From Laetmonice hystrix (taxonomy: Eukaryota): a stretch of 64,000 nucleotides of DNA. The stretch covers positions 14,138,001 to 14,202,000 of the forward strand of contig OZ249436.1 of the NCBI GenBank assembly GCA_965235115.1, read 5' to 3'. Of the stretch, positions 17,709 through 52,521 are shown one piece after another (positions within the stretch are counted from its first letter, which is position 1; each line of letters starts with the position of its first letter). The position numbers and the translations under genes are program-made. The notes under the pieces are model-generated. The model was given only the letters and a program-made list of their open reading frames with translations, did no database searches and was not told the DNA's origin.

Positions 17709-19523
17709 CCAAATCTTAAGGAGAAAGACACTGTGCTTGCCCCAGAGACATTATTGATCATCTAATGCAAAGATCCAGTCTTGTCGCTACACTGTGACCC
17801 TTGCCCATTTACAGAGATTCTATCAGAAATTTCCAGAATCACAGGCGCATTTTTTAATTTTAAACTGCATCCAAAGATATATGTCACGAATTTGGCATTG
17901 CCTCATAGCGAGAAAGAGGAATTTTACGAGATGATTTAGATTCCATTGTTTCATTAGACTTTCACAAACGAAAACAGTGTAGGAGGAAGGAAATAAACGT
18001 TGTTTAGGAAAAGGATGACGCACACTTTTAAAACATGCTTAACTGACTGAGGAATTAATTATGGTCACAGGGACAAGCGTAATCAAATTTTAACATGGAA
18101 GTGAAAAAGGTCCCCCAACCCGTTTTCTTGCCAAACCCCCTACTCAGAATCTGTCAAATGGAGTCGGGTTGAGTTGAGTCGGATCGGTACGCATAGATTG
18201 ACTGACTGTTTAGTCGGCTGGTTGTCGAGAGCTGTTTACGACCGGCATATACCGACTGTTTAGTTTGTAAAAGTTGATCGACTAAACTTTCGGCCCTTCT
18301 ATGACGGTCGTTAAACTCTATATACCTTCGTATTCAATAAAATGAGGACAGGAAGTCAGATATCCTTCACCTGCTCTGTAACGTTATATACCACTTAATA
18401 CATAGACGTGTGTGTGTGAGTAGGGATGTTTGTCCATGGTCGTATACACAATTATCGTCACTGAATACACATGGAAATCACAGGTATTGCATACAATAAG
18501 GAATTTTTATGTGGTTTGTCCGTTTCATTCAGTCTAACTTTTAAAACTGACATGGTCAAGTTCTTGATTTTTCCTAAGGTTTTTACATTTGATCCCAACA
18601 TAGATTTGTGCCTGGTAAAGGCAGCTTGCATAGAGATACCTCACGGTATTAGGTTTTCCTGAAAGTGGATCTTCAAGCATTAAATACTTTTGTAAGTAAA
18701 CAGTATTTGTCAGGCTGAGAAGAGATACATCCCTGTCACACACTGAAAGGTCTAAGCCGGAACTTCATTATTAGCGGAGGATTACATTTTTTTCTGTAAG
18801 CACGGTACAATGCTATGCCTTTAAGTGGTTGGAGAATCAGTCACATTCAGGAGTAACGTTGCAATTATTAAAGGTAGATCTATGTATCAAATTAATAGAC
18901 ATCAGGAAATGTAAGACGGCAGTTTTCATATTTATTATAACTATTTTTATTATCTTGACTTTTTGATTATTTAATATTGTGATGTAACAGGATAAGGTCC
19001 CCACCATTGGTTTTCTATGCATGAACCAGTCTCCGCCCTGTCACAGGCACCCTTACTCCCTCTGCTGAGAGAACATATAACTTCCTTTTCTCCGAATTAG
19101 ATTTGTTATTCGTTGTATCTTAGGGGTTCGGTATAATTTCTACAATTCGATGTAGGCCAGTAAGTGAACTAGACAGACGGCGAGAGAAGGTACATATCCT
19201 TTCTGCATGCTTGTATTTATTGCAAAGATGATGTTACATACTGGACACTGTACTGGCGGCTGGTTACAACTTGTAATTCTGGTAACGGTGCCTCATTAAC
19301 GACCATATACTAACTCAATGATACAAACTAACTTACTCAGTTAAGCACAGTGTATCCCCATTCATTATAATCGAAGGGTTAATTAAACGGAGTCCTCTTG
19401 ACCTGGCATTGTAAATAAGGTAAGTTTATGTGCTGCAAAGTGATGTAGCCAAGGAAACGCCGGGGAGAAACTCTGTGGGGATCTAGGACGAAATTTACTT
19501 GAACAGACCGACAGGTGGGGGCT

Positions 19524-21494: not shown

Positions 21495-24400
21495 ATTGTT
21501 GCCGGTGGCATAAAAAGGTCAAAGGCTCCTGGAAATTAGGCCTACCTCGATCTGGTTGAAAAGGTCAAACACGCCTGGGTTGCCCCCTCCCCTCACTTTG
21601 CAGAAGACAACGGCGCCCCTGCGCCCCCTTAACTATTGTTTGTGGTATTTCGGCGTTAAAGTTCAACTGGAATATGTGTTTGTCCCATGTCATGAGAGAG
21701 ACATCGTACACCATTCCAGAAATATTGAACAGACTTCTTGTAAAACTTACGGACAACTTAATGTATGCTGTATAAGGAACTGTATTGATGTAAAGTATAG
21801 CTCTATGCTAATTTCTGCCAAAGTGTTCACGTCGCGACTAAACAGTAGTTGATAGCAGCCAGATTGAGAGATTAAGACGTAAAGAATTATAGGATAAATT
21901 TGTATTGAACGGTCCTCACAGTCTTTCCGTAAACATCCCATTCTTTTGGAAGTTTATGTTCTTATAAATAGACATTGAAATTGCGACATGCGGCAATAAA
22001 TGACATTTGTGACAGTATATTTATTTATTTTAATATATTAGTGTGGTCGGAATTAAACTTCACATTTCATAAATGATCTGATTTATCACTTTTGCTTTCA
22101 TTTAAAGAAAGTAATTTGAGCTATCCTCCTGTGGCCAGACATCATCCCACACGTTCACTACGTGTGCCTTTTGAAAGCCTGATAATCTAGCTTACCGAAT
22201 ACAACGTTCGGAATTGAAAGGAAATTCCAGTGGGACTGAAAGGGAAAGGCTAGGTGGCGTACCCCAACTCACATTAAAAATTCAAGACATCCAGGAAAGA
22301 AGAATTTTCATCTGCTAACAATGAATCACCTCGTTTCTCAAATACTGTATTCAGTCATCATTCGTGTCTGTTGCTATCAATCATAGAAGAGATGAAATAA
22401 GCACAGCGCGGCACATATACACACAAAGCCCAACAACGGAATGAACAGATCAATGAGAGAATTTCATTTCCTCTCCACCATTCAGTAAACGACGTGTGAA
22501 CGCTCCACCTATTTATTCATCTACATTTCATCACAGTCCGCGTTTCAGCTCAAGATAGAGCAGTTGCTTCGGTTCAGACCCAGCGTGGGACGAGAGATAC
22601 GGGGCCATGAGAACTTAAACAGAAATATCCACGCTGAGACCATTTTACATCCATTGTTTATAATATTCGTAGAGCAATACTGTTGATAGCTATCCGTTTG
22701 GGGTCCATATACCTGCAACACACAGATACGAGCGCTAAACGTTTTTCTGGTCTTTAGTTCAAACGATAACCACAACATTAACAACTTCACAGCAGGCTGG
22801 TCATATATGCACTACATCAGCAGTTTTGCACGTTCGCAGTGAAAAGATTATTGAGACAGCAAATGCCCATTCTGAGCAGTTTTGATCGTTGGCTATATAG
22901 TGAAAGGCAGCCTATCTGTGGAAAGCTCAAGCACTAATGCACTGTTATTGTGGTGTATTGTGATATTACAGTGCATTGCTGCCAGTGATCATATACGCAT
23001 ATCAGTGAGAACACATTGCGGAAAACTGATAGGTTTGATGCCTTGATGGATTTTCAATCAGCTAGAAAATATTGCTCTTAATAGTAGTAAGGTCTGTGCT
23101 ACCATCAGCTTTTCTGATTAAAGGAAATCTGTCCGAAAATTGAAATAAACGCAGTTAATTCAACAAAAGTTGAGTAAAAACAATTATTTTAAGGGGGTTC
23201 TAGCAGTCTGGCACCATGGCACGTCCATATCGACAATATTTTTAATTAATTAAGCGTTTACCTATTTGGCTAGAGACGAGAGCACGCGAATCAAATCATG
23301 CCCTTATTTGGATTATGGGGGGGGGGGCGGGCGAGCAGTGCAAGACAGCGCATGCGTGCTGTGCCCGTTGCTTAGTAACGACCGCCAGGACCGTTAGGAA
23401 GGGAATGCGGCAGTTCTCAGTCCATTGCGATGAAAAATATGGGATGTATCGCCTCATTATGGCTCATAATCAACAACAGACCTAGCACAACAATGTTAGG
23501 ATTACGACAGAATGTTTTATCAGTCCAGTGGAATAGATTCAAGATCAGGTAAGCTTGAAATACGCGGATTCGTAGGAGATGGGGACACCGCTCCGACAAA
23601 ACTTGGCGGCTCTAGGGTGATCGATTACCTTTAATTCTCTAGAGCAACTGTCTTAATACAGGGACTGTAATTACCTGCGTAACAGCCGCGACCCCCACTG
23701 ACCCAAAGATAAATAATTACTGGGATATATACCAAGTTTCGCGCATTGTTTAGTCACTGAAGAATCGTAACTTTCGTTAGGCCTATTATATAACAATGAG
23801 AAATTAGTAAATATTGAAGTTTGGTATTGAAGTTGCTGTAGGATCATATAGGTGTAAGAATGCCCATTTCCCATGAAGAAGGGCCTTCGTCGCAACATCG
23901 CAGGGTTACCAAATTATGAACCAAAGTCTACCAAAGTGCCAATGAAATTCATCGGGCGATGAACCGATGAATTTCATAGGCTGTTCAAGTCAATGCCTGG
24001 TCAACAACCACCCATGAGACGTTCGCTTCATGGCGACAACAGGCAACTGGAATATATTGAATTTCGTTAGATTTTCCCATTTCTGTGGGTAAACATTTAT
24101 TGGTTTATGTAGTCCAAGGCCTTATCTAACCTAACAGTCCATATGGGGGCCGTCTTACTAAGGTCTGGTTATTAACGATATCGTTTATTTACATAGGTTG
24201 ACTCAAATGAGAGATACTGGTTTAAGGACTCCAAGTATTATACAAATGTGGTTTCAGAATACGGAGATTTACCTTCAGTTTAACTGGAGAAACAGCTAAA
24301 CTAATTGGAACGCGCGCAGGTGTTACATCACGTGGCTAAGTTGTGTAAACAAAATATTGAAGTCAGGTAAAATTGACATTAGGGAAAGACATGGGAATCG

Positions 24401-26492: not shown

Positions 26493-29221
26493 TTCAACAT
26501 GATCGATGAGCCCTATACTTGTTCCTTAATGAATAGGTAGTTACGTCAGGGAAGACGTAGTGGACTTTGGTAAACATGAGTTATTACTGTGTACGGGTAA
26601 TACCAGTCAGACTGTTCTCAAAACTGATATTATGTCAGAAAACATACAAATTGGCACTCACTACATGATTACGTTTATTCAGAGACATCATGGCCGATCC
26701 AGTGTCTGCAGTACAATAAGGATTCGTTTACAAATCGGACCGCCGATAACTCAGTCTGCAGGATTGCCCACTGCCCGGAGCTGTACTCTGGTGCACCAAG
26801 TTGACGGACCCGCATCTCATGACGTATTAATATTACCCCATATCAGATTCAGCAAATAAACAACGTTGTTTTCATCATCAACCTACACCGCGTCATGCCA
26901 CTCTGGCGAATAGTGCCAACATTATGTCTCAAGAGTGGGATTAGGAATGAAGAGGAGCAGAAAGCTTCCTTGTTTTTGTTCCTGGTTGGATCCAGCACCT
27001 GATCCTGTGCAACTAAATAAGATTCTGGGTAAATAAGCAGAATCCTACAATGGAACTGTGCTCATGTTCTCTTCGTGGCCGAGTAGCATTTTGGCCAGGT
27101 CGTTTGCAGTAAACACCATGGGATGTTTTTCGACATCACAGATCAGTAGACCTTGACCCTACATCCTTCCATACTTTAAAACATACTAGCTACTCTTATC
27201 AAAATAAGCTTGGGTACCCTCAAGGTATCTTCTTCGTGTATCGGTCGAAAGAATGTAGCGGTGCAACAAATAACCTCCGAGGCAGTTGTCTTCTTGCTAG
27301 GCTATCTTTCCCTCCCAGGTACTTGGGAAAACGATCCTGCTGGAAACAAATAGGATGAAGGATACAAGGGGAACTGCACGATCTTATAGATACAAATTAT
27401 GAGAAATTTCAGTTACATCATCATCAGCGGCTCGGATATAAATAGTACGTCGATCCAGAATTCGATACTGAAAAATATGCCCAGACAGAGAACTGTTCAA
27501 GTGACAAGAACTGTCAATAACTGACTGAGTCAAGATAAATTCTAATTCTTGGTATGAATTCCAAAATGCCAAAGAACAAAAGCATTGAAAAACGTAGACT
27601 AAGTTGTGTTCTAAAATGCACCAGATGGCAGATCAGAGCCCAGATCGTAAAAATTTGAGAAGTTGCTTGATCAGAAGCAAGATCTTTAAGTTTCTACGAA
27701 TTGGGCCCAGATGACACCAAAATAACCTGAAATTTCACAATTTTCCCGGGAGATCATGCCCCCTGACCATAGCTATGCTTCGCGCCTTTAGCGCTCTTGA
27801 ATCTTGATGCCGTCGCCAATATTGTGCAATGACCCTATGACATATGCGAAGTATGCAGTTTTTGAGCTAGTCGCCACTAGAATTAATATTCTGAAATGTA
27901 GGAAAAATCCCCATTCTACAAAGGGCTGGCTCTCTGGCTCTGTCTGTCTCTATCTCTCTCTTTATCTCCACCACTTTCTCGCTCTCTCGCTCACTCGCTC
28001 TTGCTCTCTTAATTTTTTACTTAGTTATTTTTAGTATAGGCTTTTAAATGAAAGTGAAACTCGGGAAAATGCCCCATCTGGCCAAGTCCCAGACTCTACA
28101 CGTAACAGTGTGTCTGAGATGAATTGGTGGTAGTGCCCCTGTCAATGCACAATGAGCAGTCGACATTGCAAGATGAAATATGTTCTAATTCGTTTAAAGT
28201 ACTCTTCATAATCACTGTAAAGTCGGTTACTGGATTCAGTTCATAAGGCCTACGTTAAACCATCTATCATCAAAACGATTGACTGACTAATAGTCCTGTC
28301 TAGTACACTTTTCACACACTGACAAGCCCTCAAAGCTTGCATTTGTCAAATTCCTTTGTATATGGAAAATCGTAGCCACCTCACGCTTCAAACCTACCTT
28401 ATCTTGTTAGTCATAAAGCGTTATTTCAGTGATACACTGGGCTGTATGTTTCATTAACTCTTATAATGAATAGGATACGTGATTTAAGCCCACACATCTA
28501 CATCTAGATTTAAAAATTGGGTCTCAGATTCTGCAAGATTACTGGTCGGACGGTGAGCTGTGATGTATTAATTTTGTGTTTGTATTTCCATGAATAGGGA
28601 AATAAATCAGAAGTAGATCTTTTGAAATAGTGTTAAATGATGTTAAATAATATAACATTGCTGCAAGGTTTGAATAATGACTGATGTTACTATCGCAGCA
28701 TGAAGAGTACATAAACGAGACCTAGAATGTCGAAATATTTGATATGCATGTATACGGGGTAGGTAACACGGAAGAACCCCCTGCTTTGTCCTGTCCTAAT
28801 TGCATTGAGAAAGAGAACTACTTCAGAATTCGACTGTCAGAGGTTGCGTCTCATCTGTCAGAAGTGATTGATTAATTTGACCTTATGTGGTTCCGTTCAC
28901 TAACCAGACATGCCATGCAATATTGAGAAACAGCTGCGAGGATCCTTGCATATATAATCTCTCCCGGGTACACGGCCGATTCGACTGTACGGGGGGAAAC
29001 GTGATTCCGAACGCGCTCTCAGTGTCCGACCATCTATTTTTTTTACCCTCATAATTATGATGCAGACAGTGCGAAATGTTCGTCTTCAAGTAATATTTGT
29101 CATATACATGGATACAGAGTACATCGCTCGACATACAGAATGCATATATCCTACCCGGCATGGAAGGGTCCGACGTCACAAAATATGTCGTGCCGGACAT
29201 AGTATACCGGACCGGATCCGC

Positions 29222-30824
29222 ACCCAGTGTGGCCAGCACTGGTTGTCACTGGGATTGATACATTGACGTGTCGGACCCAGTGTGGTCAGCACTGGTAATT
29301 GTCACTGGGATTGATACATTGACGTGTCGGACCCAGTGTGGCCAGCACTGGTTGTCACTGGGATTGATACATTGACGTGTCGGACCAAGTGTGGCCAGCA
29401 CTGGTTGTCACTGGGATTGATACATTGACGTGTCGGACCCAGTGTGGCCAGCACTGGTTGTCACTGGGATTGATACATTGACGTGTCGGACCCAGTGTGG
29501 CCAGCACTGGTAATTGTCACTGGGATTGATACATTGACGTGTCGGACCCAGTGTGGCCAGCACTGGTTGTCACTGGGATTGATACATTGACGTGTCGGAC
29601 CCAGTGTGGCCAGCACTGGTTGTCACTGGGATTGATACATTGACGTGTCGGACCCAGTGTGGTCAGCACTGGTAATTGTCACTGGGATTGATACATTGAC
29701 GTGTCGGACCCAGTGTGGCCAGCACTGGTTGTCACTGGGATTGATACATTGACGTGTCGGACCCAGTGTGGCCAGCACTGGTTGTCACTGGGATTGATAC
29801 ATTGACGTGTCGGACCCAGTGTGGCCAGCACTGGTTGTCACTGGGATTGATACATTGACGTGTCGGACCCAGTGTGGCCAGCACTGGTTGTCACTGGGAT
29901 TGATACATTGACGTGTCGGACCCAGTGTGGCCAGCACTGGTTGTCACTGGGATTGATACATTGACGTGTCGGACCCAGTGTGGTCAGCACTGGTTGTCAC
30001 TGTGATTGATACATTGACGTGTCGGACCCAGTGTGGTCAGCACTGGTAATTGTCACTGGGATTGATACATTGACGTGTCGGACCCAGTGTGGCCAGCACT
30101 GGTTGTCACTGGGATTGATACATTGACGTGTCGGACCCAGTGTGGCCAGCACTGGTTGTCACTGGGATTGATACATTGACGTGTCGGACCCAGTGTGGCC
30201 AGCACTGGTTGTCACTGGGATTGATACATTGACGTGTCGGACCCAGTGTGGCCAGCACTGGTTGTCACTGGGATTGATACATTGACGTGTCGGACCCAGT
30301 GTGGCCAGCACTGGTTGTCACTGGGATTGATACATTGACGTGTCGGACCCAGTGTGGCCAGCACTGGTTGTCACTGGGATTGATACATTGACGTGTCGGA
30401 CCCAGTGTGGCCAGCACTGGTTGTCACTGGGATTGATACATTGACGTGTCGAACCCAGTGTGGCCAGCACTGGTTGTCACTGGGATTGATACATTGACGT
30501 GTCGGACCCAGTGTGGCCAGCACTGGTTGTCACTGGGATTGATACATTGACGTGTCGGACCCAGTGTGGTCAGCACTGGTTGTCACTGGGATTGATACAT
30601 TGACGTGTCGGAACCAGTGTGGCCAGCACTGGTTGTCACTGGGATTGATACATTGACGTGTCGGACCCAGTGTGGCCAGCACTGGTTGTCACTGGGATTG
30701 ATACATTGACGTGTCGGAACCAGTGTGGCCAGCACTGGTTGTCACTGGGATTGATACATTGACGTGTCGGACCCAGTGTGGCCAGCACTGGTTGTCACTG
30801 GGATTGATACATTGACGTGTCGGA
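29222..30824. repeat. 53-bp tandem satellite, about 30 nearly identical copies
   Basis: Unit gtgtcggacccagtgtggccagcactggttgtcactgggattgatacattgac. Four units are 56 bp (extra TAA). No unique spacers. Confidence 0.97.
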
Positions 30825-30853
30825 TCCGTGACGTGTCGGAACGGATACAAATT

Positions 30854-31017
30854 CAGTGGGGAATCCAGGGGGCCATAGGAGCTCGCCCCCCTTAGATTTT
30901 CCTTTTATTATTATCAAGGTGCATTAGTACAGTAAAAAATCAAATCATGCAAAGCGTAGCGAGGGTAAATGTTTTCAGGTCCCCCTCCTGCTTATCAAAA
31001 TCCTTGATCCCCCACTG
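30854..31017. mobile_element. Short MITE with CAGTGG-type TIRs (hAT-like)
   Basis: cagtggggaatccagg ... ccttgatcccccactg inverted termini. No clean 8-bp TSD. Confidence 0.6.
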
Positions 31018-34000
31018 ACATTCTGTGTGGCCCGGTCTTCTTCTACTGTTGTCGACAACCTCTTGGCGGTGATGGATTTAATCAAGCTTAGACGGTTGAA
31101 GTATAGTAGCCTACCAATTCGCACCCCGCTGACTGCCACCAGTGCAGCAAAAACCTGCAAAATACCAGAACACGTTGAGTCGCGTGGGTATGAAATAAAA
31201 ACATACCTGGGCATTTCAAGAGATGACTTTATGGGACTTCAAAGTAAATACAGACTCACACAGATTAGTAGGCAATTCATAAGGGGTTCCTACCTTTGAT
31301 GTCGGTTTTCGTCAAACTTAGTATCGTCAGCATGAAACAAAAACACTATCCAAGTGGAAGTCTAGATGATGCATGAGTGCGCCCCAGTATGAACCCATGG
31401 ATCGTATTTTTTGAAAGAAACAATGAAATATAACCCTGGCACGAATATTGGAAACACTCGTTTGGCATGTTGGAAATTAGTCCTGAATGTCAAAGAGTTG
31501 AGAGTGAAATGGCAAGTAATGTATCAAAACACTAAAAGAACATAATTTGGAATTTTCCAACTCGCGACCGACAACCACCTTCTTATGAGAGTATAAAGTA
31601 AGACTGTGCCTCTACTGTCATCTTGACAAAAAGCTATTTTGTTGTTCCATTACGTGAAGGTCAGGATCCTCCTTCCTTATTCCAATACGGTATACGTAGA
31701 CGTTGAGATGGTCTGATAGTAGGTGTGGCTGTCCCTTGTTTCCTGAGGGTACATATGGAAGTGATAAAGTCCCAGTTTTGTCCATAGCTCGGTGCAGGAA
31801 TCATTCACGTGCACCATTGTCGTATGAGCAAACACATCTGTGAACAATCATGTCAGAACTATAACTCAGTGATGTTTTGTCTGTTGCAGGTGAGTGGTTT
31901 GTACTTGAGTGGTGCTGGCGACCTCGGAGACACTACAGCAGATAAGTGCCGAAAGCTTCCCATTCTCTTTTTGAACATCCTGTTGCTGAACAAGAACTTG
32001 TTCTTCATTACTCCCATTCACCCGTACTATTTATCAAAGTGTAGCCCTCCAGGCAGCGTGGGATGTTAAAATATCAGCCATAGCTTAGGATCATATTGAA
32101 TAAAACAATTCTAGAAGGGAAATTGACTGGCTGTTGTCTGGCCGTCACTGAACTCTCCGAAAAGAATTACCCCGTCCTTTTCAAAGTGGTTATCTCACGA
32201 ATTTCAAGACATACGTAGTGTTTCACAAAAGAATGTCTGCATTGGGGGTCTCCAATATGATCTCCCATACCTTCGATGTGAACTTTGCGGGTATTATGTA
32301 AAATACATTCAAAAAGTCGCCAAATCATATTTCAGTCACTTAAAATGCTTACTTGGCTTCCGAGACCTCTGTAGTTTTTTTTATATCCCTTTGTACACTG
32401 CTATGCAAATTATTTGTACTAGCGAAAATAGATTTCGAATCTACACCACAACAACACAACGTAAAACGATTCGGCGACACGCCAAAACGGCGGATGATCC
32501 CTTTAATTGGACAGATCAGATATATTCCATCCCATTTGACCAATAGAAAAATGTAATGTTTTCGACTCACCATTTTTAAACCCAACTCTTGAAGGTAACA
32601 ATTGGGTAATAATAATAATGATGACAAGAGAAACCACGTGTTAAGTTCAAGGTGTGCAGCGTGGAATTGAACGATACACGCTGAAAAGGGAACCGGAAAA
32701 GGATGGAGTTACCGAAAAGAGAGGGGACTCACCATGTGCCATTACGTATAATCCCCATATGGATTTAACTTTGATCTGCCTATTTAAAGTGTTTCCTGTC
32801 TCAACGTTGTTTTTCTGATGAGTTAGCTAGCATAGATATTGTAATATACAAAGTAAGTAGTATATATAACCTTGGTCCGGCACTCTATCCAGATGTTGGG
32901 ATTCTCAAGGGATTATATAGTCAATTCGTCAAGAATGACGACTTGGACGCGAAATCAAGGTACATGTATTACATTGTATCTCAATGTATACACAAGGATC
33001 GAACCCCCGGTATTACCCCAGGCATGTTTTTATTTGTTTACCCCCTCTCCAGTATTTTACGGCCCTCTCCCAAACTTCAGAACATGTCTCTCAGTATAAA
33101 CAATTACACGGTGATTGAGAGATGATTTAATCCAGACACTAGCGTCTTGGAAACTTCGAAATTCAGGGTAAAAACAAACTTTCACGTCTTTATGACTGGC
33201 TGTAATGGTTGTTCCTGTGAGGTCGGCCCGCTAAAAGAATGGCCATATTAAATGACAAGCAGCAATTCGAACATTGTGACCTTCACAATCCTGCCGATAG
33301 GGGCGGCCTAGCTGGAAATACTTTGTACCACGCAATATGGGAGAGGAAACAAGCGTCTCCGTTTGCATGCGTGCAGTGACCGGGTGGACCGATGTAGACG
33401 AGGCGGGGGCACAGCGAGTTGACCCTTTTATAGATACATGCATTTTCCTTGTTCCTATATCCGATTCTCGGAAAGATTGTTGCTCTGCGGGTCAGCTAGG
33501 GGAAGTTTGGGTAATTGCTTGTGTTTTATTGGTATTAGTCACTATAAACACGTGGTCTGGCTCATGTAAGCAAGTACTAAAAACAAAACTTTTCTTGCAC
33601 TTAGAGGTGTGCGGAGCAAGCAAGTCAGATATTTATTTAATAGTTAGTGTGTAGTACGAATTAAGAGTGCATTTAAAATCCGAACCGCCTCTGTCAATAA
33701 AATTAGTGCCACCCCAGTATGCTGTTGATTAGTATTGTCTACTAATCAGACTCGGTAGACGTATCGTGTTAGAAACTTGTTTTTTCCAAACAGTATCTGC
33801 CGTTGCGCGACTGAAAAAGAGTTGATTGCATGCTACCACCATCAGCACTGTCAAACGTTACATCTCATTCTGCTGAATGATGAGAGGAAAGGAAGAAATA
33901 TTGCTCGGGTCAAGGAAATGTATCCGTAGCCCAGGGTTATATTTACCCTCAGTATAAGACCATTCTGACATGTTGTCATGCAAACGACGTATACTTCAAT

Positions 34001-37210: not shown

Positions 37211-40200
37211 GGGAGATTTATATCGAGCATCAGAGCGAGCCCAGGGCCATTTCCTGTAAGGACAAAGCCTGGGATGCTGAAGTATGGAAGGCAGGCTCAG
37301 TGTAAAGGCCAGGGTTAGATGCGGGGGCCCTAGTTTTACCAACTACAGAAGGTTGTAATTGAGATTAACGAGCTGAGATCCTCAAAGTCCCCTGATAGAT
37401 GTCGACGAGCAGAATCTGCTGTTTCCTGCGCAGAAGCTGTCTGAAATATCGAATCCATCACCCATTATGTGTGATATTGCATACAACCTCTGTGCACGGC
37501 ATTAAGTCTGGCGAATAGATGATCAAGACTGGTTAGTACCAGGTACTTACCATGCTTTCTCTTGGAATCGCAGTTCAAAAGATCCGCCCACAGGTAAAAA
37601 AAGGCCATTACTGGTGATCATTCTCTAGTCCTTAATAGGGTCTGTCCTATATTGGTATACAAACTGTTAAGCTCCATTAGAAATTTATACCGAATGAAGG
37701 CAAACCTTATCTCAACGATTGGGCATCATTTTCACCGTTTTCATCATTTCATCATTTATACATGATGAAAATGGTAAAAGTGATGAAGTAAAAGTAAAGT
37801 AGTTTCCTAACTATATGAAGTATTAGAGTAGTACGTACTATTCACTGGCCTTAAAAAAATGTGAACCCATATAAAATTGATGCCCTGGTCATGATTGTAG
37901 CCGCTAATTGCGAGTTCTTCAAGATAGTTTCCACACTACTTTGAGAGAAAAAAGGGAAATGTACTTTTCTTTTAGATCTCCTTCAGTTTGGATAGTGTAC
38001 CCGTCCATCAGCCTGTCTGGGTTGTCTAATCTCAACTGTGAGCTCGTTCTTCTGTTCACATCTGACGTCACAATTTGCAACATTTAGCAGTCCCAAAGGC
38101 ACTTTTTAGATCCATTGTATATTCTAAGAAAGCGCCTCGACACTCCGTCAATCATGATTGAAGGTTACCACACACGAGTTGCGTCATTGATTTCAATTAA
38201 CAGTACTATCTGTCACTGGTACGTTAAACAACGGACGCTTGATGTAAAGAAGCAGTTTTTCAGATCCTACTTCCGTGGACGTGGGGGAGAGGCAGCCATG
38301 GGAGCATGCTGACCTCGGGTAGGGCCTACATCTTAGTGAAACCCAAGGTTGTAGCAGATGTATTGGATGATGTTCAAGATCAATTCCCACATTTGTCAGC
38401 TGAAAGGATGGGCTATGTTACGGGCTTGAACAGCGTTTCTGTCATATCCATCTGTACGAGACGGAAATCCTAGTAGACAGGTGAGATTGAGGTGCCAGTA
38501 CCACCTGTGACTGCCCATCTGTAACAAGGATAGCCATCTTCTGGCTGAGATACCATGACAAACATATACGTAATCAAGCGCTGCAGCATTGCTGAAGGTT
38601 TAAATATATGGATTGCTGGTTTTGGTACATAATGACTACATATGAAAGGGCTGCCCATGGTCATGTTTAAACTATAAACTGTGTACAATGTACGAACGGA
38701 TACAAACTCAGGACTGAGATGGTACTGGAGGATGGTACAGGGTATCAGAGGATCGTTTCCAAATGTTTCAATTATTCAGACTCCGATAACATCGGAATAC
38801 ATGCCACTTCATCTTGATGGTACGGAACTTTTCCATGATATTTTGTGAATATGTATCAAATGTCGCTTACATTGCACGAATTTTTTCGGTACAATATCGG
38901 CTCCAGCTGCGCTGTGATGAAGCCATGAGTGTCAGGTTGTTAACATGCAAGACATCCAGATGAAAATAGATCACCCCGATCTCTCGTTGCTCATGGTGCA
39001 TTGTGTTTCTCGGTGAAGATGAATAGATAGCAATACTTGCAGAAAATGGCCTTGTTCTTATAAAGAGTTATTTTTGCGTCTGACATAAGTAGATACAGTC
39101 AGACGAATTAGCATGGTGGCTGTTAGGTAGGTCAATGAGACACAGATCCTTTATGTGGCGAGGGCGCCACTCATTTATCTAGTGGGCATGGTCAGGAGTT
39201 AATGAAATATGCATGCTGACCCGGTGTCCTCCGCCTCCAGCAGGCTGGAGGAGGGGGCGGCGTCTATACACGCCTCCACCACGCTATCAGGTGTCGATAC
39301 ACGGTAGCTTTGTGCATGAAGTACTCGTGAACGGTCCTTCACAGAAATAACTCGGGTCAGATTGATTGAGGCTGTTGAATAACAAGAAGTATTAGGAGGA
39401 ACAGCACCAGCTGTGTCGGATGGCTGTGATGCCGCTTTGCTGAACACAATCACAGATGAGGAGGCGGAGGCCACCGGAGTCAAAAGGCAGGAATTTATTC
39501 CATCAGTGGCACTCCGTTTGATTTTCTGTCATTGCCAATCAATGGAATTGAATCATAGGTGGACTGGTGGGTGGCAATAGAGAGGGACTATTTGATTGAG
39601 TGTCTCATGACTGTGATTCGCCCATTGTGGCTGTGGGGGCTGCTCCAGTTTATGACTGGCCAATGCCTACTCAGCCGGCCTCTCTCCCCGTGCCCTTGCA
39701 TGTCATACAGGGTAGGGTTATTCATATATTTTGCTTGAAAAGAATGTAGTCGCGTGGTGATGACAGAAATTAATGTGCAGGATGTTTCACAAACTGCCCA
39801 TTTCATGGACAAGTGGCACTAATCGAGTGGCCATGATTCATGGTTCTATCAGGTGAGCTGCCACGTTTTGCACGTTTTGCGTTAAAGTCCTGAAAGCCAT
39901 TGCTCCGATTTGGCAGCTTTATTTGTTTCTTACGATTGCTGGTTTTCTTTTGTACAACCGTTCTCATTTCAATCTGGTCCGAAATGAATCATTAAATAAA
40001 GGAATGAAAATGGAATTGCAGGATAAGTTAGTTTATGTTTTAGCAGAATTAATCGTTTATAAAAATGTGATCTGAGGTAATTCGGTCGTGATGACAATTC
40101 CTGAGATAGTTGAAAACGGAAGTAACATGCGACCAGATTACAATAGTTGAGGGTGACTCATTTAAACGGTTCTCATTTCAGGTTCCTCTTCATCCGGGCT

Positions 40201-44120: not shown

Positions 44121-45226
44121 AAGGATGCGAAAGTCTATCATTGAATTAAACTGTGAACAAGAAATCGAATGATCAAATGTCGGTATGGCAACCAGCCACA
44201 GATTAGCAGATATCAGCCTATATAATTCTATGCTAAAATGTCTCCTCCTGAACCGCTTGCACAGTGCTGCCGCCATGCGGAAAAGGCGGCGACAAGGTGC
44301 CTCCATTCGGAAAACCTCGGCCCAACTTCCGGTCAGTCCCGAGGTGGGCCGAATGAAGGTACCTCATTACATTTAGGTCAATTCTATGACATTGTCGGTC
44401 TGGCTCAAGACGTTGTTTCATTTTTATATTCGTGATATTGCATTGTATAATGACGCACTGCAGGTGACCCAACCGAATTACATCATACTTTTGGGATTTC
44501 GCTTTTCCTATTTGTGTGACCACGGCCATTATAGGTACACTGCCACAATATTTTAAAGGCCCCCAGAAGTTTCATGCTTACTTAATTGAATGCATGCCTT
44601 GATGCATTTGCTCAAATCCCACTCTACAATCTGTTTTACATTTTTAACAGTTGCATCCTCAATTGTTAAAGGCAAAATATTAAACGACGCGCATGTTATT
44701 TCAACTTAGATAATATAGAAAATATAGTTCCAACATAAGAGATATAGTATAAGTGGTATAAGCCATGAACGAAACAATTCGACGGACCTTCAATTATCCT
44801 ATATTATTTCCAATTTTCAGAAGGTAGGTGGTATTTTTCATTGTCGCCTGCCTGCCAGCTCATTTCCCAAGGCGTAAAAAAACATTATGTATAGAGGACT
44901 ATGTGATTACAGATGTGTTACAGCACTCACATTTGCTGATTATGAAACGATCTTACCGTGAGGATGTATCCCAAAGCCGTGGGCGGTAGTCTCACACGGG
45001 CGAATTTTTATTCACACTATAGCATAACGTATCAGTGCCGATAAAACGCGATTTATTCGCTCTTTTTTGAAATATTGATTTGCAAAGATTGTAGCAGCAT
45101 TTCAGTCTCACCACTTGCTAATGAAGTTAGATAGAAAATTCCTCCGAGGGTGCTGTCAGGCTCACGGCGATTATCATTATTACGTTACACGAAAATCCTT
45201 CCAGCAAGCGACAGGCGAAGTCTTTA

Positions 45227-45558
45227 TTTCAGCACAATAACTCGCACTCCCAATTTGTAGAAGTTTTATTCCACTAAACATTGCAGTTTCTCGCTGTTGA
45301 ATATTAATCCATGTTACACATTGTCTTGTCCCCCCCGAAACTTCGGGAAAGGGTAAACCGATGCGGGAAATCTGCTCAAGTGATTTAATGTCAATGTCCT
45401 TCTCGCCCTCCCGTGGCTACGGGAAAGGGCCAGGATATAACTTTCTTGTCCATAACGTAAGTCTTCTTAGTTCTAGTTCCCCGTGGCTACGGGCAGAACC
45501 GAGAACCATCATTATTTGTTGGGCCCTACGGCCAAACAGGTGACCAAAGGAACCTGGG
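45227..45558 (-). repeat. Split direct repeat B2 (332 bp, 3' terminal)
   Basis: Identical by eye to 45768-46099 (offset 541). The ORF track gives the same 60-aa translation at 45361 and 45902. Confidence 0.97.
45265..45270 (-). promoter_or_regulatory. Candidate AATAAA polyadenylation signal near the element 3' end (also at 45806-45811 in B1)
   Basis: Plus-strand tttatt reads AATAAA on the coding strand, about 40 nt before the end of repeat B. Confidence 0.4.
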
Positions 45559-45580
45559 AGGCGCCGGGGATGGAGGCGGG

Positions 45581-45770
45581 CAGCAACCTGTTCACGTGCC
45601 TTCTCAACTCACACTGGCTTTCAAACTTTGCCCCTTAGCAACATCCCGCGCCAGTCTGCGCACGCACCTTATCCAGACTGGCGCACCTTATCCAGTTCCG
45701 GCTAAGACACACTCAACTTCGCGCTCCTTGTTGTGCTGAAAATCTATTTCGTGTCACGAAATTCCTCTTT
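45581..45770 (-). repeat. Split direct repeat A2 (190 bp)
   Basis: cagcaacctgttcacgtgcc...cacgaaattcctcttt is identical by eye to 52332-52521. Confidence 0.97.
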
Positions 45771-46099
45771 CAGCACAATAACTCGCACTCCCAATTTGTA
45801 GAAGTTTTATTCCACTAAACATTGCAGTTTCTCGCTGTTGAATATTAATCCATGTTACACATTGTCTTGTCCCCCCCGAAACTTCGGGAAAGGGTAAACC
45901 GATGCGGGAAATCTGCTCAAGTGATTTAATGTCAATGTCCTTCTCGCCCTCCCGTGGCTACGGGAAAGGGCCAGGATATAACTTTCTTGTCCATAACGTA
46001 AGTCTTCTTAGTTCTAGTTCCCCGTGGCTACGGGCAGAACCGAGAACCATCATTATTTGTTGGGCCCTACGGCCAAACAGGTGACCAAAGGAACCTGGG
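45768..46099 (-). repeat. Split direct repeat B1 (332 bp, just downstream of the YR stop)
   Basis: Copy of 45227-45558. Overlaps A2 by TTT (45768-45770). Confidence 0.97.
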
Positions 46100-46112
46100 C
46101 CCAACATAACCC

Positions 46113-47000
46113 CTAAAACAGAAGGCGAATGTATTTACGAAAAGCGTCTGACCGCCATCTACCCAACAGACTGATCTGAGCATCTGAGTACCCCGCCCTG
46201 GCCGGTTCAGAGGCGGCTCCTATCCTGAAACTATGGCCCTTGAAATGAGTGGTGTCCATCCCACATGCCATAAAAGGCTTAAGTAAGGCAACAACCCGGA
46301 AGTATGTATACCGCACCCCTGACACTCAAAAAACTCAGTCAACAATCTAACAGGACACATCACGTGATATGAACCCAAGGCCAACTGAATCCGCCGGGGA
46401 ACCGACGAGGTACCCATGGACACCAACCCTAAACTGTATCACTGGAACACCAAACCGTATACTCGGATACCAACCCCAACTGCATCACTGGAACACTAAC
46501 CCGTAAACTGGGACACCAACCCCAACCTGTATCACATATATTAGGGTTGTTAACCGCCAACATTATACTTTATCCAATCCACCAGAGCTACCTTACAGTA
46601 CGTTACAATCCATATTGACGCTCATCACCTGCTCTCCACGTCCCGCGACGGACCAACGGTAGAATTAACATAAACTTCACCTAGCAAGTTCATTTAATTG
46701 AAAATTATCATCAGCTCAAAACATCCGTTCTAGGACGACGAACTTAGACCCTTATAGCTGTCACCTGGCTCTTAATAGCCCGAAACGTCAACCCCCCGCA
46801 CTAAAAACCAGGGATAAAACCCACTTTTAGGAAAAAAACCCTGGAAAAGCGTAAAGGTGACTACGATGATATTCTAAGGGTACCCATCAACTCGGCTATA
46901 CACAACCCATATACACACACCCAACTACCGTGGCATCCATACCCTGACCAAATCAAACAGGGATTCAGCAGTAAAACACCGCGTATACACACTGTACGTT
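46113..47000 (-). pseudogene. DIRS/Ngaro-type tyrosine recombinase, frameshifted; 5' boundary approximate
   Basis: C-terminal motifs FKGHSFRIGAAS...LLGRWRSDAFRKYIR (HxxR, W and catalytic Y) at 46113-46325. MCPVRLL lies in an adjacent frame. A weak N-terminal GLTFRAIKSQVTAI segment lies near 46750-46810. Confidence 0.9.
46418..46535. repeat. About 46-bp tandem repeat (2.5 copies) inside the YR remnant
   Basis: Unit ggacaccaaccc(t/c)aactgtatcactggaacac(c/t)aa(a/c)ccgta..., starting at 46418, about 46465 and 46511. Confidence 0.8.
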
Positions 47001-47574
47001 GGTATATCTCATTGGTATATCTCTAAATCATAGTCAATCGTTCTTTCACATTAACTAGCAACATAATGTCCCCTAGTCACTAGCTGGGATGTCCGATGCA
47101 CGCGACTCCCATCCGCAGGAGTCAGCCTTGTCCGGCAGGATCGTGTCATGGTTTTCTATCCAGATTTTTCTACCTAGGGAGACACCCGCTCACTCTCACC
47201 AACTTGTCGCAGGTCTTGATTTCACCCCCTTGGGGGGCGGAATGGCCATCTGCAGCCACCCCAAGCATTCCGTGTTCCCTCCAATCGCATTGACCTCACC
47301 AGGGGCTGGGAGTCAACCCTTTCACACCGACGCCCAGACTCCTTGATCCACCAGGCGACACCTCCGTGGCACCAATCGTATTCTGTCGTCGACGACCCCG
47401 TTATCTTCCTGAAGACTATAACGAATCCAAGACCAAGCTCCATCGTTTCAGCTCATCCAATGGTCGACATGGCAATGAAAATTTAAAACAACAATATAAT
47501 ATCAATATTACCAATCATAAGGATCATTCCTTTGCCAACCCATCTGGACCCCTATTGCACCAATCTGATGACAC

Positions 47575-48160
47575 CATGGATACGCACATGTAAGAAGCCG
47601 CCCTCATTGGGATAGTATTTGCGTAATAGAACTTAGAGTCCCATTTTTACCCCAGTAATTAGTAATCCTTTGTGTGTATGGGGATAATTTTAAAGGCGGA
47701 CCTTCAGTTTTCAGTTTTTGGCATAAAGGTTCCATTGCCTATTCGTTTTATAATAGCTACAGCATCACCCAACGTAGCATATTACACAGTCTTCTCTTCA
47801 AAAGGTATGTGCTAATTCACTCTCACTGACTCCCCAAACGGATGGGACAATTTATGGATAAAGCAATACTCCCTCTGGAACTTTCTTCGGATCGAGACGA
47901 ACAAGAGAAACATGGAATTTAGGTAACTGTGGATGAGAAAATGGGCCCGCAACACGGGACACTGCCAATTCCTTTTCCCCACTTTCAGGGTCATCACCGT
48001 CATCTGCTGTTGATCCATTTCAGGGTTGGAACTTCTATATCGCAACCAAAACCCTAGGCTAAATCCCAGTTTAAGATACAAAACTTTATCGGGGCAATAA
48101 CCCGCTCTTAATAATGACTCCTTGAGTCTAGAACCTACAACTGGAGTCGGAAGTGCCAAG
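47575..48160 (-). pseudogene. N-terminal half of a DIRS/Ngaro-type reverse transcriptase; frameshifted and truncated
   Basis: Across frames: LPTPVVGSRL..YCPDKVLYLKLGFSLGFWLRY, RVAGPFSHP, DPKK, IHKLSHPFGESV, YATLGDAVAIIKRIGNG, SAFKIIPIHTKDY*LLG, KWDSKFYYANTIPM. No YxDD or RNase H motif seen afterwards. Confidence 0.85.
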
Positions 48161-48303
48161 CACACCGGAGCAATTTCTTTCTGAGCCTGCAACTGCAGGG
48201 ACTCAGTTGGCGCCACCACATGCATCTCCCCTGGACTTCCCGGTATCACCAAGGGCACTTCATGTGCCACCACTGGACAGCCTTTGGAGACCAATTGATG
48301 TCT

Positions 48304-48365
48304 GCTGCCGTCGCTGCCGTCGCTGCCGTCGCTGCCGTCGCTGCCGTCGCTGCCGTCGCTGCCGT
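48304..48365. repeat. (GCTGCCGTC)x~7 minisatellite at the gag C-terminus
   Basis: Perfect 9-bp units, reading (GSD)n in the gag frame. Confidence 0.95.
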
Positions 48366-49330
48366 TCCAACGATGGAATTGAAGACAGTGGCCTATTGGG
48401 ATCCTGGAGGTCGGTCTTGGCCGTTGCACTCGCGGATGACCTGATTCCCCCGTCTGGACCGCCCCCCTACACATGACATATAAACTGGCATCCAAGGATA
48501 ATTCAACATTCAACTGGCCCCACATTATTGAACCATCTGTCACACCCCTTCTGAAGCTTTCATCGCACATTAACCAGTCGCCACCAGACGCTGCCACCTT
48601 TTTGACATACTGAGCATGGGAGATCAGAGATCATGACAAGTGTAGGTGGACCTTAATCAACATGGCATGGAATCGAGCAAACGCTTGGTCCCACTCCCCC
48701 ACATTCATAGCCAGTCTGGGAGCGTCTTCACCAGCCTCAACGTTGGACGAACCCGTCGCCTACGACCTTGACAACAACGAGGATAATTCCACATATTGAT
48801 TCTCCTAAATCTTATTTTTTAAGGAGGCTGAGACACTGGAAACCAGGGACGTTGATATTGTATTTCACTCACTACGGATTGAGCTCCCCCCATGTACCAG
48901 CAAACCAGTCAGCGTTGACGCTGATGATGGACCTTGAGGTGGAATCGTCGCAGCAGCCGACGCTGGCCCCGATGCTGAAGCTGAAGCTGCCTGTAGCCGA
49001 TGGATGAGTCGATGGCAACAGCACTTGCTGGGCGTGAAGATTCTGCGGCCCTAAAACCTGAACCGGATGTCTACCCCCCTGTACGCCTGTAGCTGCAGGA
49101 ACAACAAGGGGATCTGGCGTATTGCGTTCCAACACCGGCCTCAGCTGGTGCCTAAAGGCCAACACTGCCTCAGTCACGTCCTTCTCGACCGCCTGAAACA
49201 GCAGAATGGTTTCCAGCGAATTGTCATGACGGCCTGCCTGACGCGAAGCCCCGGGCGATGCTGGTGGAGCTTCGAGGAGGTCGCTTCTTCTAGTCTGTGC
49301 CGGCCGAACCCTTAACAAAATCAAGAACAT
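48366..49330 (-). pseudogene. Gag-like ORF1 of the YR retrotransposon, with stops and frameshifts
   Basis: VSASLKNKI*ENQYVELSSLL, MNVGEWDQAFARFHAML, VAASGGDWLMCDESFRR...WGQLNVEL and IGHCLQFH resemble conserved DIRS/Ngaro ORF1 blocks. Confidence 0.75.
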
Positions 49331-49423
49331 TCATTAACCATTGCATTAATCCTTTATATATATCACACACCGCATGAGTAACAACACCTCGGCCTACACC
49401 ACAACCTCAAGCACATCACCAAC

Positions 49424-50322
49424 TCAATTCGCCCTGCTCAAGGCTTTCACCGATCTAATCAATACAGATCTAATACTGGTGAACAACTTAGCGTTCGCCA
49501 TGCGATTGTGATGTCAAAAATTTCCCCATAGGATTAGCATTGACAGGACCGACAGGTTTACAAAAACCAGCCTGTAGGCTGTATACTCACAATCCAACTT
49601 TCTAAACTATAAACCAAACATTATCCCAGAGTAACCATGCCAGCTATCATGTATTGTAACGTTGAATTATTAACAGCGACTTCACTGCAGAATGAAAATA
49701 TCTTAAAGTTGACTGTCACTCTTCCTCAGATGGCCATCGCAAACCAGCGAGGCTATCTGCTCCTTGTCCCGACAACGCGAATTCTCTTGAATTCTCGTGA
49801 CATACTTAGGCGCCCTATAGGCCTACTGGTGAACAACTTAGCGTTCCCATGGCTATTTAAATGCACCATCACGGAACATAAAGCCACCTGCCCCTATCGT
49901 ACGAGGACGACGCCAACACCTTCCTTCACCCGGGCATTAAAATGGTCTATCCTCGCTGAGTAGCTAATCAGGGACGGACCTCGGGTAGGTCCTCCGTCAA
50001 AAGCGGTACACACACAACCCTGCACACACCAAATTCCCCCGTGGCTCTTCTCACCACCATTATTAACCTCTCCCCCAATGGTCGCGGATGCACCTCGCTG
50101 TTGTTCGCCCCCATCATCAGGATGAGTATGTGGGGTTGATAGTCGTCCAGACAGTCCCACAGGGTTGGCGATCTTCTAAGTGGGCCTCTGTCCCTCCTTG
50201 GAAAGTCACGTCCACCTCCGCCACCCAAAGTTCTGTGAACGATGTGACTCGTCGATTTAGGTAGCTAACCGGCGAACATACGAATCGCCCATCATCAGCG
50301 CCTGTAACTTGAACTCCGCCAT
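49424..50322 (-). pseudogene. SGNH/GDSL-family hydrolase (esterase/lipase-like) ORF of the retroelement; frameshifted and interrupted
   Basis: ATG at 50322. Block I MAEFKLQALMMGDSYVRRL; block II VTFQGG; block III YQPHILILMMGANN; block V RDG[fs]HLNSHGNAKLFTS. After the insert the frame continues IRSVLIRSVKALSRAN* (stop at 49424-49426). Confidence 0.8.
49503..49823. other. 321-bp insertion into the SGNH ORF, flanked by a 23-28-bp direct duplication
   Basis: tactggtgaacaacttagcgttc(g)ccatg occurs at 49474-49502 and 49824-49851. Removing the insert and one copy restores a continuous C-terminal reading. Confidence 0.8.
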
Positions 50323-50406
50323 GACGAAACTGGCCCACTATCGCAAGGAATAATATTATAATCACCTAACATCAATTACAGTCATACATGTTAACGAATT
50401 AACCGG

Positions 50407-50510
50407 AGGGCGGGCAGGGGAGGGCAGGACAGGACAGGGCAGGGCAGGGCAGGGCAGGGCAGGGCAGGGCAGGGCAGGGCAGGGCAGGGCAGGGCAGGGC
50501 AGGGCAGGGC
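50407..50510. repeat. (AGGGC)n microsatellite
   Basis: About 15 perfect AGGGC units plus degenerate units. Confidence 0.95.
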
Positions 50511-50527
50511 AAAGCCAGGGAGGAAAT

Positions 50528-51608
50528 CCAAGTGCTGTCACCAACCATCACCATTGACAAGCACTGGCAACCAACAAGTACAAGTGGAACGCCATCTCAT
50601 GCACGTAGGCCATCTTGATGAGCGCAGAAACGGGAGGCGTCAACTCAAGCACATTGCCATCATTGCTAACACAATTACATCCGAGTGCTGTCACCAACCA
50701 TCGCCAACTTGACAAGCACCGGTGACGACCAATAAGGACAAGTGGAACGCCATCTCATGCACGTGGGCCGTATTGATGAGCGCGATTAAGGAAACGGGAG
50801 GCGTCACCTCAAGCACATTGCCATCGTTGATGAACGCAATTACATCCGAGTGCTGTCACCAACCATAGCCAACTTGACAAGCACCGGTGACGACCAATAA
50901 GGACAAGTGGAACGCCATCTCATGCACGTAGGCCGTATTGATCAGCGCGATTAAGGAAACGGGAGGCGTCACCTCAAGCACATTGCCATCGTTGATGAAC
51001 GCAATTACATCCGAGTGCTGTCACCAACCATAGCCAACTTGACAAGCACCGGTGACGACCAATAAGGACAAGTGGAACGCCATCTCATGCACGTAGGCCG
51101 TATTGATGAGCGCGATTAAGGAAACGGGAGGCGTCACCTCAAGCACATTGCCATCGTTGATGAACGCAATTACATCCGAGTGCTGTCACCAACCATAGCC
51201 AACTTGACAAGCACCGGTGACGACCAATAAGGACAAGTGGAACGCCATCTCATGCACGTGGGCCGTATTGATGAGCGGGAATAAGGAAACGGGAGGCGTC
51301 ACCTCAAGCACACTGCCATCGTTGATGAACGCAATTACATCCGAGTGCTGTCACCAACCATCGCCAACTTGACAAGCACCGGTGACGACCAATAAGGACA
51401 AGTGGAACGCCATCTCATGCACGTGGGCCGTATTGATGAGCGCGAATAAGGAAACGGGAGGCGTCACCTCAAGCACATTGCCGTCATTGATGAACGCAAT
51501 TACATCCGAGTGCTGTCACCAACCATAGCCAACTTGACAAGCACCGGTGACGACCAATAAGGACAAGTGGAACGCCATCTCATCCACGTAGGCCATTTTG
51601 ATGAGCGC
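50528..51608. repeat. 165-bp tandem array (about 6.5 copies) in the element 5' leader
   Basis: ccgagtgctgtcaccaacca starts at 50681, 50846, 51011, 51176, 51341 and 51506 (period 165). A divergent first unit starts near 50528. The unit has stops in all six frames. Confidence 0.95.
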
Positions 51609-52331
51609 GGGCAGGAACTGGCGGACCATAATACACAACATACACATACATTAAGCCTCAAAATATGCAGGCAACAGGCCTGCTAACATATATTCAATCA
51701 TATCACGGGCATCATTAAATTCATGAAGATCAACTGTCCGCACCAACCTCAACAATTTACCACGTTAATAACTAATTAATAACATAAGTGACAGGCACAA
51801 AGAACAGAATCAGTTATTTCCCTTTATAAATCACACACAAAGGGCTAGCACTGGCCGACCTTCATCGAGGTCACCCCTTCCCATGAAACGACTAAGTATA
51901 AAGACCACCCGGGAGCTCACTACCATACTCGACTCAAACGAAAACCTCCCGCACAGTACACCGTCATAACATACGCAAAAGTGTGGGTTGAAGAACCCGA
52001 CTCTCAGTAACCTGTCTTCACTACACAGGCCTTTCCGACCAATACCATACGCTATTGTGAGGGGTTAGCACACGCCACACAACGTGGCAGCCGCACCCAC
52101 TGAGTCGAGCAGGTCGTTGAGCGTCCTTGGCAACCAGTACAACAAAGAGCTAACTCTCGCTGCAATATTTCACCACAGACCGGGAGCTTACTAGGCCTAT
52201 GACCGAATTAATTGGGAAATAAAATACTTATCCGCATTTGTTCGTTGAGCAGATCCTATGAAGGCCACCGCAAATTCACTCCAATTAAAACGGCTTGGAC
52301 TACCACTGCAACTTGGCTCCCGCTCCACTCA

Positions 52332-52521
52332 CAGCAACCTGTTCACGTGCCTTCTCAACTCACACTGGCTTTCAAACTTTGCCCCTTAGCAACATCCCGC
52401 GCCAGTCTGCGCACGCACCTTATCCAGACTGGCGCACCTTATCCAGTTCCGGCTAAGACACACTCAACTTCGCGCTCCTTGTTGTGCTGAAAATCTATTT
52501 CGTGTCACGAAATTCCTCTTT
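52332..52521 (-). repeat. Split direct repeat A1 (190 bp, 5' terminal)
   Basis: Copy of 45581-45770. Similarity ends sharply at ...attcctcttt|agtgttacc. Confidence 0.97.

Follow-up and report, generated by a model that had tools for sequence, protein, structure and literature searches.

A conserved folded junction in Ngaro-type retrotransposons, a candidate attC-like substrate for their tyrosine recombinase

Ngaro elements are tyrosine recombinase (YR) retrotransposons with the arrangement A1-ORFs-B1A2B2, in which gag, reverse transcriptase (RT) and YR follow one another in that order and target duplication is absent (PMC8547959, PMC9210276; sources given by PMC number are cited throughout from parts of their text). 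The standing integration model for the DIRS order has a double-stranded circle recombining at an identical trinucleotide (PMC7192593, PMC3266345). One experimental study of DIRS-1 describes cDNA that is mostly linear and single-stranded and is able to seed retrotransposition, and a circle junction that could not be amplified (PMC7192593); the single-stranded DIRS-1 cDNA on record in the portion consulted is antisense. Simple YR sites have a spacer of 6–8 bp between their arms (PMC3212892), and YRs leave a 3'-phosphotyrosine on the arm that they bind (PMC5871717). The bottom strand of an integron attC site folds into two stems and a variable tip; between the stems, five to six bases of each arm stay unpaired, and the outer stem is cut on its 5' arm (PMC5027507, PMC2727003). 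These bottom strands also have a folding-energy skew of 2.12 kcal/mol, a purine excess and a GAA loop, and the same 2016 paper names IntI and XerC/XerD as the only YRs known to act on single-stranded substrates (PMC5027507).

The window analysed here is a stretch of 64,000 nt from Laetmonice hystrix, in which a first-pass annotation, made from the letters alone, had pointed to a dyad-symmetric sequence that would reproduce, inside a mobile element, the joining of its two ends and that might be its YR recombination site. The dyad is the B1/A2 junction of a minus-strand, multicopy Ngaro YR retrotransposon with a decayed interior, which confirms the first of these proposals, and the second is very probably right as well. 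The parts of the element are as follows (window coordinates, here and below).

45227..52521, minus strand: Ngaro-type YR retrotransposon, A1-[gag, RT, YR remnants]-B1-A2-B2, a non-autonomous copy, identified by repeat layout, tblastn and multicopy depth
52332..52521, minus strand: A1 repeat (5' end), 190/190 identical to A2, its last 3 bases common to the flank
52479..52518, minus strand: 5' half-site at the element 5' end, with 5-nt spacer, inner stem-loop, 4-nt spacer and returning outer arm
49894..50365, minus strand: weak SGNH/GDSL hydrolase-like fragments upstream of gag (Pfam PF13472, E=0.041, below cut-off)
48300..49330, minus strand: putative broken gag-like region, limits approximate, recognised by position and translation by eye, with no Pfam match
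47593..48147, minus strand: broken reverse-transcriptase remnant (tblastn P0001 E=4.5e-31, P0031 E=5e-13)
46116..46322, minus strand: tyrosine recombinase C-terminal remnant with HSFR and GRW..Y motifs (33 homologues, at most 81% identity; tblastn E=1e-23)
45768..46099, minus strand: B1 repeat, 332/332 identical to B2
45581..45770, minus strand: A2 repeat, 190/190 identical to A1
45559..45580, minus strand: 22-nt unique spacer from A2 to B2, from self-comparison
45227..45558, minus strand: B2 repeat, 332/332 identical to B1; contigs of other copies start at 45227
45227..45240, minus strand: outer arm left at the element 3' end, within B2

The window element shares with Ngaro the split direct repeats (A1 ... 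B1 A2 B2, with A1 identical to A2 and B1 to B2), the gag/RT/YR order and the absence of a target duplication, and its RT and YR coding regions are both present and both broken. It differs in its decayed interior and in its weak hydrolase-like fragments, which lie before gag, whereas the Ngaro hydrolase follows YR (PMC8547959, PMC9210276). No methyltransferase domain, the trait that separates PAT elements, was found among seven scanned frames of this decayed interior. Viral contigs gave eight pattern matches, none of which was confirmed as a relative of the element. The interior also contains a 5-nt microsatellite and six 165-nt tandem units of ~98% identity (50402–51610), and a run of a 9-nt repeat lies within the gag-like region (48304–48366); elsewhere in the window, an array of 53/56-nt tandem units occupies 29137–30985.

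The state of this locus in the source sample was read from contigs of three runs (one sample, one study) matched to 44300–45800. Because individual repeat contigs reach a depth of ~3,600 against ~59 for the flank, contig depth being a rough guide, the element appears to be present in tens of copies. All three runs contain a contig of flank depth that matches the window to exactly 45229 with no differences and then departs from the element, and in two of the three it continues for 394 nt past 45229 and would end at the start of the CCCA microsatellite of the right flank. These contigs are very likely the empty allele, and they agree with the empty site, lacking a target duplication, that had been predicted from the letters. 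The window copy has the same 4-mer on both sides, as does the copy at locus L068, and a 4-bp target duplication was considered; it is excluded for the window copy because the match extends through 45229 and a duplication would end it at 45226. Unlike 4-mers stand on the two sides of 11 of the 13 full copies compared, with no sign of a target-site duplication. The variants listed among the contigs all fall outside the dyad; seven of them lie in the remainder of A, at six sites. We note that the left flank is itself polymorphic among the run contigs at 44568–44727, with substitutions and an 8-base deletion.

The junction is 54 nt long (45728–45781), and its letters are as first described: outer arms at 45728–45741 and 45768–45781 that are complementary at 13 of 14 positions, and inner arms at 45746–45753 and 45755–45762 that form a perfect 8 bp around a single base, with spacers of 4 nt (45742–45745) and 5 nt (45763–45767) between outer and inner arms. 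On the sense strand the order is an outer arm ending in AAA, the putative cut, five unpaired bases, the inner stem-loop, four unpaired bases and the returning outer arm, as listed here.

45768..45781, minus strand: outer arm on the B side with terminal AAA, the 5' arm of the sense strand, with the probable cut between 45768 and 45767
45763..45767, minus strand: 5-nt side of the unpaired bubble at the start of A, from folding and family comparison
45746..45762, minus strand: inner stem-loop, an 8-bp palindrome around one base, which folds as 7 bp with a 3-nt loop
45742..45745, minus strand: 4-nt side of the unpaired bubble, from folding and family comparison
45728..45741, minus strand: outer arm returning within A2, pairing with the B end at 13/14 positions

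For a 71-nt piece carrying the junction the two strands fold with equal energy (-15.9 kcal/mol; z -6.6 and -5.6), which none of 200 shuffles equalled, and the element ends taken singly have no fold (z -0.9 to +0.4). The half-site at 52479–52518 is a copy of 45728–45767 at an offset of 6751, and only its inner stem folds. Repeats of the outer type (arms of 14 with at most one mismatch, within 40 nt) occur at three places in the window; the outer repeat by itself is uncommon and not unique, and what goes beyond chance is its position at the junction and its recurrence in relatives. An Rfam search of 45100–46300 returned no match at E≤1. Short repeats at 9322, 17912 and 32192 were tried as junction copies and rejected; the stretches 9322–9360, 17880–17942 and 32192–32230 are short, related to one another and of a different repeat family. 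Two further short inverted repeats, both near-perfect, lie at 23938–23981 and 37734–37775.

An alignment of 24 YR homologues was used to fetch metagenome loci, of which the 80 best among 560 confirmed ones formed the discovery set, with junction boundaries taken from split repeats, from contig breaks within a family or from repeated contig ends. Boundary-backed junctions number 17 among the 80 loci; six more have the fold by scan or eye only, and 57 are too short, collapsed or unbounded. A nested fold is present in all 11 discovery families with boundary backing, the window included, so that the dyad recurs in related elements, as a recombination site had been expected to do. Its outer stem ends in AA at the cut and is followed by an unpaired bubble and by an inner stem that a short loop closes; the bubble is 5x4 in nine families, 5x5 in one and 4x4 in one. 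Outer positions 3–8 are paired in 59 of 66 cases with their own partner versus 45% across families (0/100,000 permutations), and inner positions in 66 of 66 versus 67%; registers in this set were chosen by eye, L019, L058 and L074 were first spotted by hairpin scan, and L019 is only bracketed by repeats. Loose hairpin-scan matches lacking boundary evidence were discarded as false matches (that of L009/L060 falls inside B), and the split-end scan matches in long loci, mostly due to chance, were likewise left uncounted. For the family of L003, L004, L009 and L060 the B end is seen and no returning arm was found in the contigs, from which A is probably absent.

A rule for the fold, loose enough to admit the discovery set, was fixed before the held-out loci; it is satisfied at 232 of 391,734 positions, or in 0.4% of windows of ±3 nt. 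The held-out loci came from a second scan, which yielded 47 new ones on contigs that are filed in symbiont genomes and resemble host DNA: nine full elements, four with B only, six collapsed (three with a rule match inside the repeats and three without) and 28 without usable repeats. On the sense strand, seven of the nine full A1..B1A2B2 elements satisfy the rule, each with a 5x4 bubble, and on the antisense strand none of the nine does; the misses, L097 and L100, are each off by one inner mismatch. Two of the four B-only loci pass, L091 has a 5x3 bubble, and the repeat end of L095 is without such a fold. Outer positions 5–8 of the held-out junctions are paired in 40 of 48 cases versus 47% across loci (0/50,000 permutations). 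We note that L081–L127 include complete Ngaro elements on contigs in bacterial or archaeal bins from animal-associated samples, and that these contigs resemble host DNA.

In a MAFFT alignment of 20 junctions, trimmed to the limits of the structure, 90.3% of 300 cells are paired, compared with 24–46% in slid registers, and double changes number 68 against 22.4 after shuffling (0/500) and are present in 12 of the 15 pairs; the families are related by descent, which makes these p-values, and those of the permutations above, optimistic. RNAalifold found the same structure in this alignment unprompted. The invariant letters are the AA before the cut, the TT opposite and one inner T, and the YR proteins of these loci have a median identity of 35% and form two well-supported clades. 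In one clade (L068, L074, L078, L093–L125) the bubble almost always ends in G next to the returning arm, opposite the first base after the cut.

The ends of insertions were compared with the cut position fixed after AA. A1 begins as A2 does for 20 nt in all 13 full-length copies. The TTT that the first-pass annotation had placed at both element ends and at the internal junction is there (left end 45227–45229, internal junction 45768–45770, right end 52519–52521); its reading as a shared core fares worse, the triplet before the cut being identical to the element's at only 5 of 20 5' ends; in 4 of 13 full-length copies, element and target have no base in common on either side of the cut. Nor is TTT constant within the window's own family, of which another copy matches A only to 45769, that is, through two of the three T. 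The spacer, taken as the six bases after the cut, agrees with the element at 46 of 162 positions (28% identity). The crossover is moreover off-centre, on the inner border of an outer arm, and because the outer arms are 26 nt apart, against a spacer of 6–8 bp, they do not form a simple YR site; the loxP-like exchange of inverted arms over a TTT core that had been proposed does not suit this geometry. The element spacer is kept at 20 of 22 5' ends, the exceptions being the decayed L108 and the odd L066, and for the seven of these 22 that come from collapsed contigs the test is one of agreement among copies only. None of 27 3' ends carries the element spacer in full, the best (L094) having five of the six bases. 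To judge from these sequences, Cre-type homology is absent at Ngaro insertion ends, and mixed products of a Tn916-type heteroduplex were not seen among the ends compared. A target consensus of T eight bases after the cut was present in 13 of 15 discovery cases and 5 of 12 held-out ones, and was rejected as general. At L066 (5673–5768 and 12508–12603) the 3' junction is normal, the 5' end is without the hairpin interior and 96 bp of flank are duplicated; this locus may be a one-ended join completed by repair.

The two strands of the junction are not equivalent. Of the odd-length stems, 4 of 8 in the discovery set and 5 of 9 in the held-out set read GNA at the loop centre on the sense strand, with ~7% expected, and none of the 17 does so on the antisense strand; the GNA label needs eight changes on the YR tree, so these loops do not reflect one single inheritance. 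GNA triloops are typical of stable DNA hairpins rather than RNA hairpins. Purines make up 135 of 206 bubble bases (66%, versus 53% locally), and in DNA folding the sense strand is the more stable in 18 of 20 junctions, by a mean of 1.65 kcal/mol. RNA energies also favour the sense strand, in 15 of 20, and there the window's own site favours the antisense strand. The window site lacks a GNA loop, its one mismatch favours antisense and its two strands fold alike. A sense-strand excess of G.T over A.C in the discovery set (14:2, p=0.012 versus composition) was 1:1 in the held-out set and did not replicate.

We consider it probable that the Ngaro junction serves as an attC-like folded single-strand substrate of its YR and is integrated via one strand exchange, a model that we prefer because the fold, the strand skew, the cut position, the lack of homology and the one-sided products are all expected from it. 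We infer that the fold would form in vivo as DNA, either as a free strand or as a cruciform arm, to be bound and cut by the YR and resolved by replication. The sense strand would fold where the B end meets the start of A, giving the outer stem, 5x4 bubble, inner stem and short loop, and two YR subunits would each occupy one stem, with the outer-stem subunit cutting after the conserved AA. The mapped cut lies on the 5' side of the hairpin of the sense strand and 3' of its outer arm, which is where a 3'-phosphotyrosine is expected and where attC sites are cut, and because the 3'-phosphotyrosine of YRs sits on the bound arm, a cut after AA would be a sense-strand cut by the outer-stem subunit. 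The cut strand would be exchanged singly with an A/T-rich chromosomal target, for which homology would be unnecessary, and replication or repair would complete the insertion, which would have A as its 5' end and B as its 3' end and would lack a target duplication, the internal B1/A2 copy being a putative template for rebuilding both ends. Because the recorded DIRS-1 cDNA is antisense and the bias here is sense, the model needs an additional step, by way of a plus strand or a cruciform. Two further points weigh against the attC-like reading: the B1/A2 copy inside the element does not appear as a crossover, and one-sided products would also be expected from one exchange on double-stranded DNA.

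More tentatively, and with a little less than an even chance in our estimation, Ngaro may represent a eukaryotic Cre-like YR that has converged on the integron strategy, with an attC-like sense hairpin, one exchange and no homology, and with the B1/A2 seam copied to the front of the plus strand. Speculatively, plus-strand DNA across B1/A2 might be transferred to the element front through A, which would leave only that seam free to fold. If this were true, seam copying, as in LTR second-strand transfer, would explain both the identical repeats and the sole use of the B1/A2 seam, and the same logic might cover PAT, VIPER and DIRS1 elements.

The one-sided products lead to the first alternative, which we think unlikely: in a double-stranded circle, the outer arm, a 6-bp spacer and the inner arm would be a simple YR core and the returning half an inverted accessory site, with homology-free recombination as in Tn916/Tn1549, by one exchange or with strand-biased heteroduplex repair. 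The AA and TT do flank a 6-base spacer at the cut, the YR is Cre-like, and the Tn1549 integrase melts its crossover region and recombines without spacer homology (PMC5871717); cut position and missing homology fit such a site equally well, and protein-binding dyads, too, can co-vary between families. The outer and inner arms, however, which ought to be mirrors of each other, pair at only 1–5 of 7 positions, far fewer than the outer arm and its distant partner, and the sense-specific GNA loops, purine bubbles and energy skew are left unexplained; plain heteroduplex segregation in particular predicts both end types, whereas the full element spacer is found at 0 of 27 3' ends.

The strand bias bears on a second alternative, to which we give somewhat less credence, in which the element ends are set by the hairpin acting in RNA or nascent cDNA, be it in priming, pausing, template switching or packaging, with recombination using another form of the junction. 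The favoured strand is the RNA-like one, the preference of RNA energies for it (15/20) agrees with this, and a 3' hairpin has been proposed as the DIRS-1 reverse-transcription primer (cited in PMC7192593), but priming does not call for a constant 5x4 bubble, as large as a YR spacer, with AA and TT unvarying exactly at the cut, and RNA energies favour the antisense strand at the window's own site. The GNA triloops, as noted above, likewise point to DNA rather than RNA. The textbook model, which the first-pass annotation shared and in which a double-stranded circle recombines with an identical genomic trinucleotide and the outer arms are loxP-like, is stated for DIRS1-like elements (PMC3266345, PMC7192593) and suits the three bases that the window copy has in common with its target, but it is very improbable here and appears largely refuted for the Ngaro sequences sampled, given the off-centre cut, arms 26 nt apart, triplet identity at 5/20 ends, 4/13 full copies without a shared base and spacer identity of 28%.

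That the element is a Ngaro-type retrotransposon is known ground; the conserved folded junction is apparently new, as far as the literature searched goes. No description of such a junction was found in the parts consulted of PMC7192593, PMC8547959, PMC9210276, PMC6681497 and PMC3783388, nor in those of PMC13465315, PMC3266345, PMC3212892 and PMC4157794, which are mainly open-access main texts, and an earlier mention elsewhere is possible. The fold specifies an exact candidate substrate, strand and cut position for a simple oligonucleotide assay, suggests a testable insertion route for poorly understood elements and marks Ngaro ends by their structure. A eukaryotic recombinase that is guided by structure and needs no homology would also make an interesting tool.

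Among known systems, DIRS1-like elements with an ICR are similar to Ngaro in carrying an internal copy of the end-to-end junction; DIRS1 has NTT/AAN ends and single-stranded cDNA (PMC7192593, PMC3266345). They have inverted termini and an inverted internal copy, in contrast to the split direct repeats of Ngaro. The closest solved relative of the Ngaro YR among the matches listed is Cre, both by sequence (E ~1e-11) and by fold, but Cre/loxP requires full spacer homology and two exchanges, both of which are absent in Ngaro, and in place of loxP-type arms centred on a homologous 6–8 bp spacer the Ngaro junction has an off-centre cut and a 46/162 match. Tn916/Tn1549 resemble Ngaro in a homology-free crossover region of 5–7 bases between A/T-rich arm ends (PMC5871717); they differ in having a double-stranded circle, a dyad centred on the crossover, a need for one bp of homology and a heteroduplex (PMC5871717), where the Ngaro dyad is off-centre and its products are one-sided. 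A Tn916-type coupling sequence would place the donor spacer at either end, and in Ngaro it is at 20 of 22 5' ends and 0 of 27 3' ends. In the XerCD/CTX phage system, folded single-stranded DNA is joined to a duplex by a single exchange that is resolved by replication (PMC3442271), as proposed here for Ngaro; CTX phage uses the host XerC/XerD at a fixed dif site, whereas Ngaro encodes its own YR and enters diverse sites.

The integron attC site is the nearest in form. Its parts are the R box, unpaired central spacer, L box and terminal loop, and the Ngaro fold has a matching layout: a folded strand, predicted and covarying, with two stems, an unpaired spacer between them, a variable tip and a putative cut after AA-type bases on the 5' outer arm (PMC5027507, PMC2727003). 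In both, structure is kept with little sequence, purine content and energy are skewed to the cut strand, and small GAA-type loops occur (PMC5027507, PMC2727003). The Ngaro junction is unlike attC in belonging to a eukaryotic retroelement, in its length (~45–60 nt versus 57–141), in apparently needing not one base of homology and in being split between B and A, so that the site is whole only at B/A seams. The AAC/GTT triplet of attC is not found, only AA and TT being invariant, with T or A most often as the preceding base. Extrahelical bases are not evident in the inner stems, which pair without gaps across the 20 aligned junctions. The 26 sequence matches and 31 fold matches listed for the Ngaro YR include no integron integrase, and the best of those listed are Cre variants rather than IntI-type enzymes. 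Because its YR is Cre-like and it has neither AAC nor evident extrahelical bases, the Ngaro site is not an integron: it is attC-like in layout only, and is served by a Cre-like enzyme.
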